In this document: piece after piece, positions 2,488-10,658 of the stretch
Numbering within the stretch: the first letter of the stretch is position 1
How the letters are laid out: each line of letters opens with the position of its first letter
Source of the DNA: a virus
DNA length: 16,550 bases
Strand: one strand, 5' to 3'
Virus genome (UHGV): UHGV-0152507
The notes under the pieces: model-generated
Seen by the model: only the letters and a program-made list of their open reading frames with translations
What the model was told of the DNA's origin: nothing
The model's database searches: none
Position numbers and translations under genes: made by a program

Positions 2488-2949
2488 ATGAAAGAAATCC
2501 GAGAAAACGAATTAAATGCGAGATCTCAGTATTTACGTCAGTTTCCGTTAGATGGTGCTCGCGTCGCACGAATCTGCAAGATGACAGAAGCGCAAGCAAA
2601 CGCTATTCGCGATATGAACACCGACGAACTGCAAAAGCAGGTTTTCGTTACACCTGTTGAATTTGCATATCTGACGGGCCGGACTCTTAAGTCAGTACGT
2701 AACTTAATGGATCGTGCTCAGTTACCGGTCCACCGCGAAGGGATGCCGGGTTCCAAACGTCCTAAGCGTTTCATCATGCTGCAAGAGTATTGGGACGCCG
2801 TAGCACACTGCCGCGCACTAATTACCCCAGAAGAAAAGCACTACATCGATCGTCTGATGCGCGACAAGAAAACATATCGCCGCGTAACTGGTAACAATCA
2901 TCAGACGCATACGCGCACAAGCCGCAATTCAGCAAGGGCTGTCGCATGA
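2488..2949 (+). CDS. cox: Cox-like excisionase/early regulator with N- and C-terminal extensions
   Basis: Internal segment PVEFAYLTGRTLKSVRNLMDRAQLPV aligns with P2 Cox (EFAKLIGKSTGAVRRMIDKGKLPV as recalled). First gene of the rightward operon; strong SD GAAGGAG 7 nt before ATG 2488. At 153 aa it is longer than P2 Cox (91 aa); a later start at the in-frame ATG near 2581 is possible. Confidence 0.7.
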   Translation: MKEIRENELNARSQYLRQFPLDGARVARICKMTEAQANAIRDMNTDELQKQVFVTPVEFAYLTGRTLKSVRNLMDRAQLPVHREGMPGSKRPKRFIMLQEYWDAVAHCRALITPEEKHYIDRLMRDKKTYRRVTGNNHQTHTRTSRNSARAVA

Positions 2950-3404
2950 AAAACAGCAAATCAGTAAACGAACTTATTTCCGCTGTGAATGAGTTTTTGC
3001 GTAACAGCAACCCAGAGCGCTTGATCGATAATGGCATTCACGAAGCCTTATGCAACCTCGTTGATGCCGTAAGCCAGCAACAAGAAGAAATCGACTCCCT
3101 GCTGGAACGGCTGAATGCGCATAGCCCCGTTAATAGCGCGATAAAGGAAGAATCCGGTACTGTATTTCGCCGCCGCTATTACCGCAATGGTGTTCACGCG
3201 GGAAATGTTTATTTCCGAATTGAAGCGTTTGAAGGGATTAAAAGTTGGGCAGAAGAACTAAGGGCTGATTTTGAATCTTGTCTTAACGATTTTATTTCAC
3301 GACTTCACCCTGAACACCGTGCTTGCTTCGTTTCTACAGTAATAAGTCGCGCCCACAGTTTGACGTCGGAAGAGAAAGCGGAGTGGGAGCGACTTCAGAA
3401 GTAA
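2946..3404 (+). CDS. Hypothetical early protein carrying a portal-like FRRRYY-NG-HAG motif
   Basis: 152-aa ORF; ATG overlaps the cox stop (ATGA at 2946..2949). Contains TVFRRRYYRNGVHAGNVYF, which matches TIFRRRYYNNGAHMGFILY in this prophage's portal and the corresponding P2 Q segment as recalled. Confidence 0.7.
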   Translation: MKNSKSVNELISAVNEFLRNSNPERLIDNGIHEALCNLVDAVSQQQEEIDSLLERLNAHSPVNSAIKEESGTVFRRRYYRNGVHAGNVYFRIEAFEGIKSWAEELRADFESCLNDFISRLHPEHRACFVSTVISRAHSLTSEEKAEWERLQK

Positions 3405-3410
3405 AAATGA

Positions 3411-3641
3411 TTATTTATTTGCCGTCGCATTTGCAGGGCTAAATTGCATCAGCTCCTTATAGAGTTTCTGCATATGCGGATTGTCCATTTCTTTCAGTGA
3501 CTTCATAACCCTTAAAGCGTGCTCATGTGACTGAGAGAAAATGGATAGGGCTAGGGCCATTTTTAATGCACTGATTTCGCCGTTGATGTCATTGAGATCA
3601 GTTTCAAAAGTGACGTTATTGACTTGATAACTATTGCTCAT
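3411..3641 (-). CDS. Hypothetical small protein (76 aa), antisense to the early operon; moron-like
   Basis: Good SD (AAGGA, 6-nt spacer) before ATG at 3641. Visibly AT-richer than its neighbours. Sits between plus-strand genes, with a 136-bp non-coding stretch on its 5' side (3642..3777). Confidence 0.6.
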   Translation of the reverse strand: MSNSYQVNNVTFETDLNDINGEISALKMALALSIFSQSHEHALRVMKSLKEMDNPHMQKLYKELMQFSPANATANK

Positions 3642-3777
3642 TTTTTTCCTTTGCGTTGGTAAAAGTTATGCCTGATTCACCGCTCAACGTTTCACAGGCA
3701 TAGCGATGTTAGCACAGGAAACACGCGCCGGGCGTGGGGTTATATCCCGGCACTTTTTCAATTTGACGGAGATCAAC

Positions 3778-3999
3778 ATGGACTTAACACAATGCCCTTC
3801 ACTTGCCAGCCTGCTAACCCACGGCCAGCAGATCACCCACCGTCAGCATCAACGCGGCTGGATTGAAACCCCGGACGGGCGTTTCTTCCAGCCTAAAGCA
3901 GCAGATGTTCAATTTATTAAAAACTGCCGTTTACCGTTTATGTCGCGCCCGCGTAATAAGCGCCGCTGGTTTTCCCGCTTAATGGGTATCTTCGCGTAG
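3778..3999 (+). CDS. Hypothetical early protein (73 aa)
   Basis: ATG 3778 preceded by GGAG with a 6-nt spacer. The longer form from ATG 3706 lacks a convincing SD. No recognisable motif. Confidence 0.5.
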   Translation: MDLTQCPSLASLLTHGQQITHRQHQRGWIETPDGRFFQPKAADVQFIKNCRLPFMSRPRNKRRWFSRLMGIFA

Positions 4000-4014
4000 T
4001 TCGGGGAGGTGGTT

Positions 4015-4404
4015 ATGTTGATGGATAAGACAGGACAACAGCCAGGCCGCCGCCAGTTCTTAGAGCAACGGGCGCGGCTGCAAGCCAGTTTGAACGCCTC
4101 ACGCGTGAATGACACTGCAACCCGTTTTAACCGCCTGGATGATGCCTGCAAAAAGGTGATTTTCATCCTGGCAAACGATGCGTCCAGATACATAGCCGGA
4201 ATGCCGAAGCTGACCGCCAAACAGTTGGGTTGCACTTACGAAAATCTAACCGAAAAGGAGCAAACGTGCCTTTTGATGGGCATTAAGCGCCTTTCCGAAT
4301 TTGCAGCATCAATGCCGTGGGAATTTGAGGACTACGCCGCACCACGCGCCGAAATTCAGGCGATACGCGACAAACCACCCGCGCCAGATAACGCAGTCAA
4401 TTAA
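4015..4404 (+). CDS. Hypothetical early protein (~129 aa)
   Basis: ATG 4015 with SD GGAGGT 4 nt upstream (the ORF track starts at GTG 4009). Codon usage is like the neighbours. No motif recognised. Confidence 0.6.
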   Translation: MLMDKTGQQPGRRQFLEQRARLQASLNASRVNDTATRFNRLDDACKKVIFILANDASRYIAGMPKLTAKQLGCTYENLTEKEQTCLLMGIKRLSEFAASMPWEFEDYAAPRAEIQAIRDKPPAPDNAVN

Positions 4405-4474
4405 CAACTAACTACCCACAAAAAAGAAACAGGCGCTAACGCGTCGGGCTTCTTGCACCCTGGAGAAAGTAAAA

Positions 4475-5479
4475 ATGATTCGATCTCTCGTTAAATGGCC
4501 CGGTGGTAAAGGCCGCGTTATGCCTGATTTGCTGCCGATTCTGCCGAAAGCCGATTGCCTGGTGGAACCGTTTGTCGGCGGAGCTTCTGTTTTCCTCAAT
4601 ACTGAATATCGCCGTTATATCCTGGGTGATATCAACCCAGATTTAATTAACCTGTATCGCCAGATAACCCGCTGGCCTGATGCGGTGATCGACGCTGCTC
4701 GCCCGCTGTTTAAAGTGTACGGTGATAAAGACGGCTATAAGTGGATCCGCGACGATTTCAACGCCCGCGCCCATGACCTTCTGTCATCGCGCAATGTGTT
4801 TGAGGACGGACCGGACGCGGGCAAGATTCTTCGTGCAGCACAGTTTCTTTACCTGAACCGTCACGGATATAACGGCGTAGTGCGCTACAACCAACAGGGC
4901 GGATATAACGTTCCCTTTGGTAGACACAAAACCCCGCCTTACTTCCCGGAAGAACAGATCCGTTTATTCTCTGAAAAAGCTAACGACACGAAAGCTATTT
5001 TCGTGTGCTGCGATTTCCAGAGCACGTTAAAAATCATGATTGGTAGTGACGCGGTTATCTACTGCGATCCGCCATACCTGCCAGCAAGCGACACCGCTAA
5101 TTTCACCCAATACCACACCGCCCCGTTTGGCATTAAAGAGCATCGCCAGTTAGCTGCCGCCCTGCTGGATATTAACCGCCTTACTGGTTCGCCGGTGATC
5201 CTGTCCAATAGCGACACCCCATCTACCCGCGAGATTTATCGCGCTTTCAACTTCCAGGAAATCAGCGTTAACCGTTCTGTCAGCGCGAACGCCATTACCA
5301 GAGGGGCCGCCAGTGAAGTGATCGGCGTGCTGCCTGTCTGTGATGGCTGCGGGCGCTATGAAGGTGGTCACTGTGCGAAATGTTGCCCAGGTATCGCCGC
5401 ATGTGAGGAGGGATGGTCGTTTGATTGTCGAGGCAACTGCGATATTTGCGAGCCGTCCGATAACCCGGAAACGTGGTAA
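4475..5479 (+). CDS. dam: DNA adenine methyltransferase (Dam family) with a C-terminal Cys-rich extension
   Basis: AdoMet-binding motif EPFVGGASVF near the N-terminus and catalytic DPPY (CDPPYLP), with Dam-like sequence throughout. SD GGAGAAAG. The last ~50 codons (5330..5479) encode ten cysteines that are not part of a typical Dam. Confidence 0.9.
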   Translation: MIRSLVKWPGGKGRVMPDLLPILPKADCLVEPFVGGASVFLNTEYRRYILGDINPDLINLYRQITRWPDAVIDAARPLFKVYGDKDGYKWIRDDFNARAHDLLSSRNVFEDGPDAGKILRAAQFLYLNRHGYNGVVRYNQQGGYNVPFGRHKTPPYFPEEQIRLFSEKANDTKAIFVCCDFQSTLKIMIGSDAVIYCDPPYLPASDTANFTQYHTAPFGIKEHRQLAAALLDINRLTGSPVILSNSDTPSTREIYRAFNFQEISVNRSVSANAITRGAASEVIGVLPVCDGCGRYEGGHCAKCCPGIAACEEGWSFDCRGNCDICEPSDNPETW

Positions 5480-6125: not shown

Positions 6126-7126
6126 CTGCCTATTACAACGAAATCGATCCATATGCAGCACAGTGGCTGCGCAACCTCATTGATGCCGGGCATATTGCGC
6201 CAGGCATTGTTGATACCCGTTCAATTGAGGATGTAACCCCCAATGACCTTAAAGGCTTTACTCAATGTCACTTCTTTGCCGGGATCGGTGTGTGGTCATA
6301 TGCCCTGCGTCTTGTGGGCTGGCCGGACGACAAACCGATCTGGACTGGATCCTGCCCATGCCAGCCTTTCAGCCCGGCAGGCAAAGCAACTGGGTTTGAT
6401 GACGAGCGGCACTTATGGCCCGCCTTTCATTGGCTCATTGCTCAGTGCCGCCCTGTCGTTGTCGCTGGCGAGCAATCTGGAAGCGCTAACGCGAACGTCT
6501 GGCTCGACCTTGTACAAACTGACATGGAAAGCCTGGGCTATGCCTTCGGGGCGGTCGCGTTTCCGTCTGCGAGCGTCGGTGCGCCACACATCTGGGACAG
6601 AGCTTACTGGGTGGCCGACACCAACGGCGAGCGCATGGAAACACCCTGGAAACCAGGGGAGGCAGGGAGGCTTGAATTTGCAAACGGCCACAGCATTAGC
6701 TGGGTGGCCGACACCAACAACGCAGAGCAACAACCAAATCTCAGGAGTTGGAGCTGCTGCAGATCACCCGAAGCGCGGGACAACTTTGGGCGGGGCTGCT
6801 CAGCTGTCGGGGTGGCCGACACCAGCTTCAAGGGACGGCAAGGGGGGGTATCAGGGCGGGAGGATACGCAACGGGAAGCTGTCGACGGACACGCTGGATG
6901 TGACGGCGCAAATTGCGGGACCGGTCCGGTTAACGGTTTCTGGCGATCTGCTGACTGGCTGTATTGCCGGGATGGAAACTGGAGGCCAGTTAAACCCGGA
7001 CTTAAGCCGCTGGTTGATGGGGTTACCGGACGAGTGGGAAAAATCCGCGCCTACGGAAACGCTATCAACGTTGAAGCTGCAACAGCGTTCATAAAGGCTT
7101 ATATGATGGGGGCGTCAAATGTCTGA
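6122..7126 (+). CDS. Dcm-like DNA cytosine-5 methyltransferase, apparently frame-disrupted or frame-variable
   Basis: Annotated frame has FFAGIGVW (motif I-like), catalytic PCQ at 6356..6364, RPVVVAGEQ (motif VI-like), LESLGY, GAPHIWDRAYWVA (motif VIII-like) and YGNAINVEAATAFI (motif X, 7052..7093). The motif IX-like LNPDLSRWLMGLPDEW is only in the overlapping +1 frame (6990..7037). Confidence 0.7.
   Translation: MTAYYNEIDPYAAQWLRNLIDAGHIAPGIVDTRSIEDVTPNDLKGFTQCHFFAGIGVWSYALRLVGWPDDKPIWTGSCPCQPFSPAGKATGFDDERHLWPAFHWLIAQCRPVVVAGEQSGSANANVWLDLVQTDMESLGYAFGAVAFPSASVGAPHIWDRAYWVADTNGERMETPWKPGEAGRLEFANGHSISWVADTNNAEQQPNLRSWSCCRSPEARDNFGRGCSAVGVADTSFKGRQGGVSGREDTQREAVDGHAGCDGANCGTGPVNGFWRSADWLYCRDGNWRPVKPGLKPLVDGVTGRVGKIRAYGNAINVEAATAFIKAYMMGASNV
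6607..6826. repeat. Three copies of a 19-nt element inside the methyltransferase gene
   Basis: CTGGGTGGCCGACACCAAC at 6607..6625 and 6700..6718; CGGGGTGGCCGACACCAGC at 6808..6826. They encode GWPTP in the +1 frame and (W/G)VADT in the annotated frame. Confidence 0.7.
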
Positions 7127-9737
7127 CGCCGCCTTTGCATGGCCCTGGAACGCGCCGCGCCCAGCTGTTGGCCTGTACACCTACGAACCGAAAAAAATCG
7201 CCCCGCTTGCCGGGGCGGTGGCGCATCATCCTGCCGTAAAAAAACACATCGATCACATATTCAAACGCGCCGGTTACAACCCTGACGACGTTCGCGACCG
7301 TGACGCGCTGATCCAGACGCTGGACAGGTACGAACCGTGCGGCCTGCCACTGGCCGCCCAACAAAATATCATCCGGCAGGAAAGTGCAGCCGCGAAAGCT
7401 GCGGCGGCCGCCTGGGCCAATACGCCGGAAGGTGTCGAAGCGCGTTTGTTGTCTGAGCCGTTCTTCATCCGCGAAGTCTGGCGCAAAAAAATTGAATGGT
7501 TACGGGCCAACCGTGAAACCAGACACACCAATGATTTTCTTATGGGGACCGTGAAAAAATCATTGCTGCGTCTTGATGTTGTGCGCACAAGGCAAGGTGT
7601 TTCGCCTGATATCACCGGCGAACTGGCCGCGTACTGGTTCGGGCGCTGGCAACGGCTGGCTGATTTCACAAAGCGGGAAGCCCTAAGCGCCGCTAATGAG
7701 ATCGCCAGCCGCATGGCTGAAATGCTGGGGACGGAATGCGAAGCCTTGGGACGAAATGTTTCAGACATGAACGTCGAAGAACTGGACTGGCTTTATTGCC
7801 ACCTGGGCCGTGAAATGCTGGCGCTTCGCATTGTGCCGCCTGCATGGTATGCGCCGTGGGAACGCGAGCGCATATGCACGGCCATTTTGCGTATGGCTTC
7901 GCCTGACTGGTGGGGGCGCAAAATCTGGCGCTTGCGTTGTGACTGGCGCGAAAACCAGCTGCGTGCTGTTGGCGCGGTAAATAAAAAAGCGCATCCGTAT
8001 ATCAGTGCATCAAGCCTGATGGAATGGCAGGAACAGCGACGTAAAAACCGTAATTTCTTCAAAAGTCATGAACTGGTAGACGAAGACGGCAACGTTTCGT
8101 CGCTTGAGGACATGATTAACAAATCCACGTCTAACCCTGCAATTCGTCGTCATGAGCTTATGGCCCGTATGGCTGGCGTGGAGCTTGTCGCCCAGAGTCG
8201 TGGCGATGTTGGCATCTTCCTGACCATCACTTGCCCGTCGAAATATCACGGCAATATTGCGTCCGGCCACCATAACGCAAAATGGAACTACGACACGGTT
8301 GCACAGGCGCAACGCTATTTATGCCGCGTATGGAACCGGGCAACCGCCAAACTGAAACGCGAAGATTTGCGCCCTTACGGCTTCCGCGTCGCCGAGCCGC
8401 ATCACGACGGAACGCCACACTGGCACGCCCTGCTATTTATGCCGCAGGCAGAAGTTAAAGCCACGGTAGCGATTTTGCGTGATTACTTTGTCAAAGAGGA
8501 CCGCGCCGAACTGGGGCGTAATACCGGTGCTCGCTTCAAGTCCAAAAAAATGGACCCACGGAAAGGGTCAGCAACGGCGTATATCGCGAAATACATTTCG
8601 AAGAATATCGACGGCCATGCGCTGGCCGGTGAACTGGACGACGAAAGCGGCAAGCCGCTGAATGAAACAGCCAAATATGCAATGGCCTGGGCATCACTTC
8701 ACCGCATCCGTCAGTTTCAGCCCATCGGACAGCCGCCCATATCGGTTTACCGCGAGCTGCGCAAACTGAGCAATCAGATCACGACGCGCCAGAAAATTGA
8801 CAATACCTTCAAGCGCGGTGCGCCGTTGCTTGTGGATCCTGCTATGGATGCGGTTTGCGCCGCTGCGGATGTCGGGTGCTTTGCTACCTACATCATCCGC
8901 CAGGGTGGTGTTTTGATCCCGCGAGAAAACTATGTCGTCCGTCTGGCCTATCAGCCAGCTGATGAAATGAATGCTTATTGTGAGATCCCCGAAAAGGTAT
9001 TCGGGGTCTGGTCGCCACGTCTGGGGGATGCCTCCCGCATTTGCACCCGTCTGGTTAAGTGGAAAATCCGCGCCAAATCCAAAGCCACCACCGGGGCCAA
9101 AAACGGCCCCGGTTTGGGGGTTGACCTTTTGCCGTCGCCAACCGGCGACGCTTGGAGTTCTGTCAATAACTCTACGGAAGACGAAAAAATCACCGATTTT
9201 TCGCCTGATGTGGAAGGGGTGACAGGAGGAGCAGAAGGGGAAATCGGCGATGTTGAAAACATGGACCAACCGACACGGCGAAAATTGATGCGGCGACTAC
9301 GTGAAACACCATTCAAAAGGCAGCAAAACGGATCACCTTATGAGCCAGGCAGCGAATTAGATGTCGCCTGGCGTTCTGCCGTGGAAAAAACCGAGGCCAG
9401 ATCGGCGGCAGAAAAGGCCAAACGGGCGGCGCTTGCCCCTGCTGTTGCCAGCCTGCTGGCAGATGCGGCGTTGTATTCGGTTGAGATTTCAGAGATTCAG
9501 GCCGTTTCGCTGTTAATGGGGAGTTGTCTGGAGATTGGCGGCAAAGTTTATCGGGCCAGTGCTGACGGCCAGTTGATAACGCGTCAATTACCCGACGAGT
9601 CACGGACGGTGAATAAATTATGGGAACGTCTGCGGGATAACCACGGCATAGATGCCACGCGCCTGCGGTTCGACCCTGCGGGCGAATACGCAAAGATGTT
9701 AACGAAAGCAATTAATTGCGCTGACAAAAAGGGGTGA
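7119..9737 (+). CDS. A: Rolling-circle replication initiator endonuclease, P2 gene A-like
   Basis: 872 aa. HUH-type motif GTPHWHALLF and paired-tyrosine motif YIAKYISKN (compare phiX174 gpA YVAKYVNK). N-terminal AWPWNAPRPAVG resembles P2 A. Position after the early accessory genes is as in P2. Confidence 0.9.
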   Translation: MSDAAFAWPWNAPRPAVGLYTYEPKKIAPLAGAVAHHPAVKKHIDHIFKRAGYNPDDVRDRDALIQTLDRYEPCGLPLAAQQNIIRQESAAAKAAAAAWANTPEGVEARLLSEPFFIREVWRKKIEWLRANRETRHTNDFLMGTVKKSLLRLDVVRTRQGVSPDITGELAAYWFGRWQRLADFTKREALSAANEIASRMAEMLGTECEALGRNVSDMNVEELDWLYCHLGREMLALRIVPPAWYAPWERERICTAILRMASPDWWGRKIWRLRCDWRENQLRAVGAVNKKAHPYISASSLMEWQEQRRKNRNFFKSHELVDEDGNVSSLEDMINKSTSNPAIRRHELMARMAGVELVAQSRGDVGIFLTITCPSKYHGNIASGHHNAKWNYDTVAQAQRYLCRVWNRATAKLKREDLRPYGFRVAEPHHDGTPHWHALLFMPQAEVKATVAILRDYFVKEDRAELGRNTGARFKSKKMDPRKGSATAYIAKYISKNIDGHALAGELDDESGKPLNETAKYAMAWASLHRIRQFQPIGQPPISVYRELRKLSNQITTRQKIDNTFKRGAPLLVDPAMDAVCAAADVGCFATYIIRQGGVLIPRENYVVRLAYQPADEMNAYCEIPEKVFGVWSPRLGDASRICTRLVKWKIRAKSKATTGAKNGPGLGVDLLPSPTGDAWSSVNNSTEDEKITDFSPDVEGVTGGAEGEIGDVENMDQPTRRKLMRRLRETPFKRQQNGSPYEPGSELDVAWRSAVEKTEARSAAEKAKRAALAPAVASLLADAALYSVEISEIQAVSLLMGSCLEIGGKVYRASADGQLITRQLPDESRTVNKLWERLRDNHGIDATRLRFDPAGEYAKMLTKAINCADKKG

Positions 9738-9739
9738 GC

Positions 9740-9955
9740 ATGAAAATTATTATTGGGCATAAGAAGCAAAATAATCAGTTAGATGTAGTTGTAAGTGCCT
9801 GGTGTTGGGAAGTGGAGCAACTCAATAAGCTGACAAAAGAAGTGATCCGGGTGTTTTTTGTGGAAGGTGAAGCAACGTGCGTGCCGTCGTCATTTCTTCT
9901 GCGTCGTAAATACAAGGTAAGCGGGCCGGAGAGTTCTAAATCTTCCACCAGATAA
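9740..9955 (+). CDS. Hypothetical small protein (71 aa) immediately after A, at the P2 orf91 position
   Basis: ATG 9740 sits 3 nt after the A stop, with AAGGGG upstream. AT-rich. No motif recognised. Confidence 0.45.
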   Translation: MKIIIGHKKQNNQLDVVVSAWCWEVEQLNKLTKEVIRVFFVEGEATCVPSSFLLRRKYKVSGPESSKSSTR

Positions 9956-10066
9956 AACAGTCAATCGCGAAAACCTGCGTTACTTGTTGCGCGGGTTTTC
10001 ACGATTCTGCGGGTGCGGGCGGCAAAGAGTCCGCATGTTTTGATTCTAAAAGTGAGATAAGAAAAA

Positions 10067-10282
10067 ATGAAAGCGAGTTATATCAGTTACTTTGAAGGTT
10101 ACGATGCTCTTGGCCGAATGATTTTTAATGGCAATGGTTCATGTTCGGTTGAATACGACGAGACTGAGGGAATCGATCCTGAAGGGTTGCAGGTCGCGCA
10201 TTGTGAGCATCTTTTAAAGGTGGCCCAGGCCAAAAATAACAGTGTCGTGAGAGTCACGATTAATAACATGATGAAACTGTAA
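10067..10282 (+). CDS. Hypothetical small acidic protein (71 aa), cargo at the P2 tin/old position
   Basis: Stand-alone ORF in an AT-rich stretch, followed by a stem-loop terminator. Weak SD. No motif recognised. Confidence 0.5.
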   Translation: MKASYISYFEGYDALGRMIFNGNGSCSVEYDETEGIDPEGLQVAHCEHLLKVAQAKNNSVVRVTINNMMKL

Positions 10283-10309
10283 TTGTTATCAATTCCAATA
10301 GTTAAAAAT

Positions 10310-10326
10310 GCCCGCTTTATGCGGGC
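10310..10326. terminator. Bidirectional rho-independent terminator between convergent genes
   Basis: Stem GCCCGC / GCGGGC with a 5-nt loop. Followed on the plus strand by TTCGTTTAT and on the minus strand by ATTTTTA. Lies 5 nt beyond the minus-strand zinc-finger gene stop. Confidence 0.55.
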
Positions 10327-10331
10327 TTCGT

Positions 10332-10658
10332 TTATGCCGTCTGACCGTTGAGCAGGTCCAGCGCGAATTGACGTTCTTCGGGCTTGAGCCGGTCAATCAG
10401 AAATTTAACCAGCTTGTTGCCGGTCAGCCCGCTGGGGCTGAGGGTATGTGAAAACTCAACGCTATAAACAAATGTATGACCACATTCCACTTCCGTGCAG
10501 CCACAGTATAAAGACGCCAGTTTTTTATCTTTCCAGTCAGATTTACGAATGATGGCCGGTGAGCCGCATTCAGGACATTTAATTTTAAAAACTCGCATGT
10601 TCACCATCCCGCACGCCATTGCTAACAATGGGGATGATTTTAACTTAACTGCGCTCAT
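10332..10658 (-). CDS. Ogr/Delta-family zinc-finger protein (putative late-gene transcription activator)
   Basis: CPEC ... CGCTEVECGHTF matches the Ogr pattern CPLC ... CQNVNCSATF, with similar spacing. ATG at 10658 overlaps the portal stop (ATGA). An alternative start at ATG 10598 (MRVFKIKCPEC) would give an Ogr-sized N-terminus. Confidence 0.7.
   Translation of the reverse strand: MSAVKLKSSPLLAMACGMVNMRVFKIKCPECGSPAIIRKSDWKDKKLASLYCGCTEVECGHTFVYSVEFSHTLSPSGLTGNKLVKFLIDRLKPEERQFALDLLNGQTA

Follow-up and report, generated by a model that had tools for sequence, protein, structure and literature searches.

P2-like phages carry lysogenic-conversion genes, of which old and tin lie between gpA and the portal gene and Z/fun lies in the tail region, and genes of this type are thought to be expressed from promoters of their own in the prophage. 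Coliphage 186 has, within its rightward early operon, the leftward establishment promoter pE, which is activated by CII, has an inverted repeat spanning its -35 region and is analogous to lambda pRE. Published surveys of P2 hotspots name the gpA-portal interval, Z/fun and the region from the tail genes to CI/int (PMC9122126; 10.1101/2024.10.15.618418), and one such survey credits a broad interval, which covers the genome region considered here, with 8% of the P2 defence systems. Here we describe a 76-aa open reading frame (ORF) that runs leftward against the rightward early operon of the virus genome UHGV-0152507, a stretch of 16,550 nt (the window) which, by its gene content, is the left part of a prophage of P2-like (Peduoviridae) type and includes the immunity and early genes. 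We propose, at a probability of roughly 0.6, that the ORF is an accessory gene in an antisense cargo slot, transcribed from its own leftward sigma-70 promoter, expressed in lysogens and encoding a protein-binding product. To judge from sequence comparison, the slot combines one conserved leftward promoter and leader, at least 14 unrelated families of small AT-rich cargo genes and precise exchange; it is apparently undescribed, the cassette not being described in the literature searched. The novelty lies less in the single gene than in this reusable promoter/leader and its set of mini-proteins.

Size alone is no proof that such an ORF is a gene, as the window's ORF list holds dozens of spurious frames of 60-110 aa. 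A search of 5.8 billion proteins returned eight homologues at 70-99% identity, and a profile search of 1.8 billion cluster representatives together with a second profile search brought the total to 16 homologue clusters at 29-99% identity, eight of them close and eight distant, all 67-78 aa long and all annotated as 'hypothetical'. They come from Salmonella, Citrobacter, Enterobacter, Serratia and Yersinia, and a copy with 99% protein identity is annotated in Salmonella enterica. The first-pass annotation of this DNA had named interruption by stop codons in relatives as a refuting result; the frame is intact in all 16 clusters, down to 29% identity. At codon level, the proportions of non-synonymous (pN) and synonymous (pS) differences point to purifying selection, with pN 0.10 against pS 0.76 for the Citrobacter copy and ranges of 0.10-0.15 against 0.76-0.86 (pN/pS about 0.14), while in more distant copies pN is 0.15-0.43 and pS is saturated. 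Synonymous sites are saturated where the protein is still 83-88% identical. Because of this conservation and a pN far below pS, and not because of its length, we take the ORF to be a genuine protein-coding gene under strong purifying selection, belonging to a rare family (family A). In each of the 13 homologue contexts that were read it is a lone small gene opposing an early lytic operon. Twelve of these are P2-like or related integrative elements, where it is usually flanked by fil on one side and, on the other, by a Cox-type gene together with one variable ORF; the thirteenth is a lambdoid phage with RecT, an N-like peptide, CII and an S24 repressor.

The layout recorded in the first-pass annotation holds almost throughout. 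The ORF is present with its ATG start at the expected place on the minus strand (Table 1), and all of its neighbours between 2488 and 9737 are on the plus strand. Its GC content (0.398) is indeed lower than that of orf152 (0.458), fil (0.527) and the whole window (0.524). The Shine-Dalgarno sequence AAGGA is there, with a spacer to the ATG of 5 nt and not the 6 nt claimed, a trivial difference. The 136 bp of non-coding sequence on the 5' side (3642-3777) follow from the fil start, an in-frame ATG at 3778 after GGAG, which agrees with the 73-aa Fil calls in relatives and with Pfam Phage_186_Fil; the identity of fil itself is given by Pfam PF10893 (E = 6e-12) and phrog_816. On the 3' side orf152 converges on the gene, with 6 nt (3405-3410) between the two stops, and its portal-like motif is real, 29 residues that are 41% identical to the phage's own portal protein and match phrog_68 (E = 1.3e-7). 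The converging plus-strand gene varies among family-A loci, with ORFs of 152, 69/86, 83 or 222 aa.

The spacer had been suggested to hold a promoter; what that suggestion missed is that it appears to be a widely conserved leftward promoter and 5'-untranslated region (5'-UTR) cassette, common to many unrelated cargo genes. Read on the cargo strand in 16 aligned loci, its order is an inverted repeat (IR1), about 10 nt, TGTGnTAnnnT, about 6 nt, a 6-8 bp GC-rich stem closed by a loop of some 20 nt, a tract rich in C and A, the ribosome-binding site and the ATG. Within TGnTAnnnT these 16 cassettes show no variation at TG, T-12 and A-11 and almost none at T-7, and wider sets are alike. This pattern is the predicted signature of an extended -10 sigma-70 promoter, and counting from the -10 position the predicted transcription start falls at about 3701-3699, at the foot of the stem-loop. 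The promoter suggestion is supported in that the spacer holds a conserved, promoter-like extended -10 element; there is no match to a -35 element.

The stem-loop shows compensatory changes in five of its eight pairs in the widest alignment, and pairing extends to 94% of alignment cells; sliding the partners lowers this figure to 31-45%. Among its G.U wobbles, the six inner pairs favour the cargo-sense strand by 5 to 1, and all eight pairs taken together are ambiguous (5 vs 6). An AAGGA/AGGAG-type site and an ACCAAC-like tract are kept in most cassettes, the start codon of the family-A ORF is conserved among the aligned cassettes, and the distance from the ATG to the start of a CGTGTTT motif is 85 nt in 15/15 loci examined. 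In 19 complete E. coli genomes the match to the window (91% identity over 3647-3800) begins exactly at the ribosome-binding site, and behind the matching spacer lies a different antisense gene, of 159 aa. The cassette would be a small, portable unit of expression whose 5' hairpin covaries.

The distribution of the cassette was followed with a covariance model (R1) built from the 16 aligned cassettes and with 80 related IMG/VR loci collected by using Fil as an anchor. R1 detects the cassette in 30 of the 80 Fil-anchored contigs, in all cases oriented against fil, from which it is separated by one gene if it does not lie immediately upstream. An exact-motif scan with the Salmonella/E. coli version found nothing in species-representative genomes, where a degenerate pattern was needed; this gave hits in 20 Enterobacterales genomes, of which R1 confirmed 19. 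The 20 belong to Yersinia, E. albertii, Serratia, Pectobacterium, Erwinia, Kluyvera, Pantoea, Brenneria, Sodalis, Kosakonia and Trabulsiella. Its other three hits, in unrelated phyla, have no R1 match and look like chance. When one cassette was used as a BLAST query, the core motif also turned up in the isolated phages SEN4/SEN5, vB_YenM_42.18, vB_YpM_115 and vB_YpM_117. The cargo of the Salmonella phages SEN4/SEN5 is SEN5_34, a hypothetical protein, whose gene in SEN5 has a hairpin after its stop codon. The Yersinia phage vB_YenM_42.18 has a cargo ORF that is missing from its annotation, on the strand opposite gp08, which is annotated: a complete cassette (L137 2501-2730) with ribosome-binding site and an ATG at 2612 leads into an ORF beginning MSNTEDEVHTLVQRDFDTNDFHI, antisense to the 221-aa gp08, and the published annotation may here have the wrong strand or have missed a gene.

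Downstream of the 57 cassette instances collected, 52 ORFs fall into 14 BLASTP clusters of 35-174 aa with a GC content of 0.34-0.46, among which family A is over-represented because the sampling was seeded with it. A cargo family of 83-91 aa was considered as a remote relative of family A and kept separate (hhalign E = 0.043, probability 1%). Exchange of cargo is seen most directly in a relative (L033) that shares orf152 as far as 3391 (84% identity) and resumes its match on the right flank at 3645 (97%), with a different gene, of 92 aa, in between; the exchanged stretch, 3392-3644, amounts to little more than the ORF. In all comparisons the right-hand breakpoints lie within 3634-3647, where the ribosome-binding site and the start codon are. 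The cassette and fil form the right anchor of the slot, and the cargo between the anchors is variable. Relatives are polymorphic both for presence and for content, since the Salmonella phage SI7 lacks the unit and L033 has the gene replaced. SI7 is the nearest isolated phage, 97-98% identical to the window from 3793 onward; its cox is directly followed by fil, with the antisense unit and the spacer both missing. Conversely, two loci (L105 and L103) carry a family-A gene without fil. A Citrobacter prophage is collinear with the window at a continuous ~83% DNA identity across 3436-5461, and as the gene has diverged at the rate of this backbone it is, within its own lineage, an old resident allele of the slot and not a recent insertion.

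Two further loci show what else may occupy the slot. Downstream of the 92-aa cargo, L033 has about 220 extra bases (1865-2084) with a possible 52-aa, very hydrophobic minus-strand ORF, and some cargo may accordingly be two-gene units. In E. coli 2011C-4251 (L002 2216-3429) an IS3-family element lies between a variable plus-strand early ORF and the 159-aa cargo; as it splits the early operon, that prophage may be defective.

Upstream of the promoter, IR1 is nearly invariant across the 57 cassettes, and read on the plus strand it is followed by ACTTTTTC and then by the fil ribosome-binding site. One of its arms is overlapped at 3727-3732 by a second hairpin or palindrome (IR1b), so that the two structures are mutually exclusive. 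IR1b shows covariation in two of its five pairs (A-U/G-C and U-A/C-G) and is flagged as terminator-like by a consensus scan. In the compared loci, which also included L009, L010, L103-L108 and L113-L135, the mismatches in the two repeats, rare in IR1, are for the most part A.C when read on the cargo strand and hence G.U when read on the plus strand, and this suggests RNA hairpins in the early mRNA ahead of the fil ribosome-binding site. The pair is perhaps an RNA switch, attenuator or processing element of the early transcript, separate from the antisense gene. A plain intrinsic terminator at IR1 is unlikely, as relatives differ in the T-run that follows it (ACCAATTC, AGCCTTCT and others). A lambdoid contig (L106 3830-4219, SRR9157675) has a family-A homologue of 38% identity, antisense in the early-left operon and preceded by an IR1-like hairpin with a similar loop, GCTGGG-N13-CCCAGC; its ribosome-binding-site region is tandemly duplicated, and a perfect TATAAT lies upstream of the hairpin, which would therefore be transcribed there.

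The features of the window are collected in Table 1.

Table 1. Position of the cargo gene, its upstream cassette and neighbouring genes in the window.
Feature	Position	Strand	Remarks
Integrase gene (int)	974-2011	minus	
P2 C-type helix-turn-helix repressor gene	2066-2368	minus	
First early gene	2488-2949	plus	153 aa; faint Cox similarity limited to residues 54-116
orf152	2946-3404	plus	variable early gene converging on the cargo gene; 29-residue portal-like motif
Swappable cargo segment	3392-3644	minus	from the comparison with L033
Cargo gene, family A	3411-3641	minus	76 aa; ATG start
Shine-Dalgarno AAGGA	3647-3651	minus	5-nt spacer to the ATG; follows an unstructured tract rich in C and A (ACCAAC)
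5'-UTR stem-loop	3667-3702	minus	arms 3702-3695 (UAUGCCUG) and 3674-3667 (CAGGCAUA); 20-nt loop
Predicted extended -10 element, TGcTAACAT	3706-3714	minus	TG 3714-3713, hexamer 3711-3706
IR1b, CACGC-GCCGG-GCGTG (plus strand)	3722-3736		second hairpin or palindrome
IR1, GCCGGG-N13-CCCGGC	3727-3751		centred ~41 bp upstream of the predicted leftward start; single copy in the window
fil (Phage_186_Fil cell-division inhibitor)	3778-3999	plus	divergent from the cargo gene; usual right neighbour of the cassette
Genes for phrog_7428 protein, Dam methylase and gpA	gpA, 7119-9737	plus	in this order after fil
Portal and terminase genes	beyond gpA	minus	

An early promoter is predicted near 2351-2387 by the consensus scan, and the operator-like repeat TCxTCTATCTA is confined to 2365-2394 in a repeat search. 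Relatives that share the cargo family carry an ordinary Cox of 89-94 aa in place of the window's 153-aa protein, and the immunity/excision module therefore assorts independently of the cargo. The gpA-portal interval (9738-10654), the classic old/tin hotspot, here holds a few small ORFs (73, 71 and 108 aa), and in a Citrobacter relative (L003/L004) it holds a 450-aa KAP-family nucleoside triphosphatase. Pieces of structural proteins occur in early-operon genes adjoining the slot: besides orf152 itself, a Salmonella relative (L111 3232-3900) has at the place of orf152 a 222-aa ORF with a weak match to the N-terminal (scaffold) part of GpO, and the early operon of vB_YenM_42.18 (L137 4067-4276) has a 69-aa product annotated as 'gpO family capsid scaffolding protein'. 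Such pieces could be assembly decoys against competitors or satellites.

The protein is small (8.6 kDa, pI 6.3), soluble and, by prediction, mostly alpha-helical, and its AlphaFold2 model has four helices at modest confidence (predicted local distance difference test, pLDDT, 66). Pfam, NCBIfam and PADLOC gave no significant match to it, tblastn against 50,697 phage records gave nothing, and a sequence-profile search of the PDB gave noise only. The sole match in PHROGs, weak and below a confident threshold, is to phrog_6806 (E = 0.005; residues 4-65 against positions 5-66 of a 70-position profile), a family of phage proteins of about 70 aa whose function is not known and which, the match being full-length, may be a distant relative. 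Against Rfam 15, no part of the window reaches gathering score, and 3300-3900 gives nothing at E <= 1.

According to the explanation we favour, leftward transcription, on the same strand as the repressor and integrase genes, would initiate at the extended -10 promoter without a recognisable -35, and the mRNA would start with the conserved stem-loop (3702-3667), followed by the C/A-rich leader and AAGGA. This promoter would stay on while the repressor silences the early promoter, and the protein would then be made in lysogens. We infer activity in the repressed prophage because 3642-3777 holds no copy of the repressor-operator-like repeat (repeat search) and because no LexA box (CTG-N10-CAG) was seen in it by eye; a CRP site was likewise not seen by eye. 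During lytic growth, convergent transcription from the early promoter, ~1.3 kb away, would interfere with the leftward promoter. As the first-pass annotation had argued, early transcripts would have to cross the gene antisense in order to reach fil and gpA, since no conserved plus-strand promoter was recognised by eye in the spacer; a promoter for fil at this place was rejected for the same reason, no conserved -10 being seen by eye in the aligned spacers. Leftward transcription probably extends into orf152 and, from what is generally known of such transcripts, would be ended by Rho. The most speculative step concerns the action of the product, a small, soluble and helical protein that would work by binding to a partner protein; by analogy with other lysogenic-conversion genes of P2-like phages and other variable prophage loci, its role would most plausibly lie in phage-phage or satellite conflict or in host modulation.

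Several results weigh against this explanation. A simple -35/-10 consensus scan finds nothing on the minus strand, the leftward promoter being missed because it has no -35 match, and the same kind of scan finds no intrinsic terminator after the ORF on the minus strand below 3411. Pfam and PHROGs searches with eight of the cargo families returned only 'unknown function', with no Pfam or NCBIfam match, and PADLOC found no defence match for family A or for the 159-aa cargo. Structure comparison of the predicted helical bundle gave a generic fold with no informative neighbour, so that any activity assigned to the 76-aa protein is a guess. The gene is as old as the backbone within its own lineage and could have a role in the life cycle of the phage itself. 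Finally, IR1 lies over the -35 region, the place expected of a class-II activator site or of an operator for the leftward promoter, and if it were either of these the promoter would be conditional and not constitutive.

Of the features by which Hendrix and colleagues recognise morons, the locus shows variable presence and a differing composition (0.398 vs 0.524), probably also a promoter of its own, and no terminator of its own. The moron layout proposed in the first-pass annotation is accordingly borne out in part, by an independent, AT-rich and polymorphic gene with a promoter-like 5' element, and falls short for want of the terminator. The further proposal of a toxin-antitoxin-like or defence identity found no support, there being no toxin-antitoxin partner and no match to any defence model. 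The earlier observation is thus confirmed and its interpretation partly supported.

A different explanation, which we consider unlikely, is that the unit is mainly self-regulatory and the cargo secondary, with transcriptional interference from the leftward promoter or antisense RNA damping orf152, cox or fil-gpA, or with the protein modulating Fil or Cox. The promoter and leader are better conserved than the cargo, the cassette is convergent with the early promoter in all cases and almost always adjoins fil or stands one gene off, family A has diverged together with the backbone, and the transcript, with no terminator after the ORF, should run antisense into orf152. Such untranslated antisense RNA downstream is, however, on general knowledge a likely target of Rho, and the strong purifying selection on the ORF with its conserved ribosome-binding site indicates a function for the protein. 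Fourteen unrelated proteins can hardly share one phage-specific partner, and the absence of the cassette from 50 of the 80 Fil-encoding relatives and from SI7 shows that the switch can dispense with it.

It is rather improbable that the promoter depends on an activator or repressor bound at IR1 near -41, in which case the cargo would be specific to a stage or signal and might serve, for example, in counter-defence or host takeover. The position near -41 is that of a class-II activator and is reminiscent of CII at pE in coliphage 186. IR1 (GCCGGG-N11-13-CCCGGC in the wider set) replaces the -35 region and is nearly invariant in sequence rather than covarying, as would be expected of a protein site, and extended -10 promoters without a -35 are in general often weak unaided. 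On the other hand, no candidate regulator is common to all elements with the cassette, whose immunity and Cox types differ and one of which (L105) has no fil, no CII-type protein was detected in the window, and the mismatches in IR1/IR1b fit hairpins of a rightward RNA better than a DNA site.

That the 76-aa protein is an antidote, paired in toxin-antitoxin-like fashion with a toxic partner that would be Fil or the product of the converging early gene, is very improbable. The gene is divergent from fil, which encodes a cell-division inhibitor, and its product is small and acidic to neutral; yet the same fil has any of 14 unrelated proteins beside it, fil occurs with no cassette in SI7 and in 50 other phages, L105 and L103 carry the family-A gene without fil, the converging partner changes from locus to locus, and no toxin-antitoxin domains were found. 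A chance frame in an AT-rich spacer, or a conserved non-coding RNA, is effectively refuted, for although spurious ORFs of like length are many in the window and the protein has no Pfam family, the frame is open in every homologue to 29% identity, synonymous sites are saturated at 83-88% protein identity, the start codon and ribosome-binding site are conserved and Rfam has no match.

Returning to an accessory gene expressed in lysogens, a wider and more tentative proposal is that the P2-like prophages of Enterobacterales share an undescribed, portable 'expression socket' within the early lytic operon, made up of a conserved extended -10 promoter and a structured leader, that opposes the early promoter and carries at least 14 families of tiny proteins, possibly made only when the prophage is repressed and turned off at induction. 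These might form a new reservoir of anti-phage, anti-satellite or host-modulating functions, and IR1/IR1b might be the switch that gates read-through into fil and gpA. If the cargo is expressed in lysogens, its ~14 protein families make up a well-delimited collection, simple to clone, for screening against phages and P4-like satellites, and the convergent layout would be a natural case of a gene shut off by the onset of lytic transcription.

Among known systems, a CII/pE establishment system was considered and rejected, as the window has no CII match and the 153-aa first early protein is only faintly Cox-like; a type II toxin-antitoxin module was rejected for its single gene, its variable neighbours on the opposite strand and the lack of toxin-antitoxin domains, and a known RNA family because neither the spacer nor the ORF has a match in Rfam 15. 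The likeness to 186 pE is that of a leftward promoter within a rightward early operon with an inverted repeat over its -35. It differs in that no CII homologue was found in the window, the sequence of the repeat is unrelated, a variable coding gene of its own follows the promoter immediately, and nothing indicates that the transcript extends as far as the repressor gene, which is 1.3 kb from the promoter. In its accessible portions, a Salmonella prophage transcriptome that covers the 186-like prophage BTP5 does not mention such a cassette (PMC7067206), and the corresponding portions of the survey with the broad interval define that interval coarsely, by known defence systems, with no mention of a fil-proximal cassette, its promoter/leader or its cargo. 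The locus shares with P2 defence hotspots the variable cargo between anchors and differs in that the cargo has no recognised defence domains. The known P2-like accessory hotspots have yielded many defence systems, large and recognisable and at operon edges. With old, tin and fun the gene has in common that it is an AT-rich accessory gene at a fixed position between conserved genes and variable among similar phages. Unlike them, it lies inside the early lytic operon, antisense and next to fil, its cargo consists of one very small gene, encoding 35-174 aa, which has no defence domain of a known kind and is unrecognised by Pfam, NCBIfam and PADLOC, and the window's ORF is without a terminator of its own; its promoter and 5'-UTR would form one conserved cassette that is reused from cargo to cargo.

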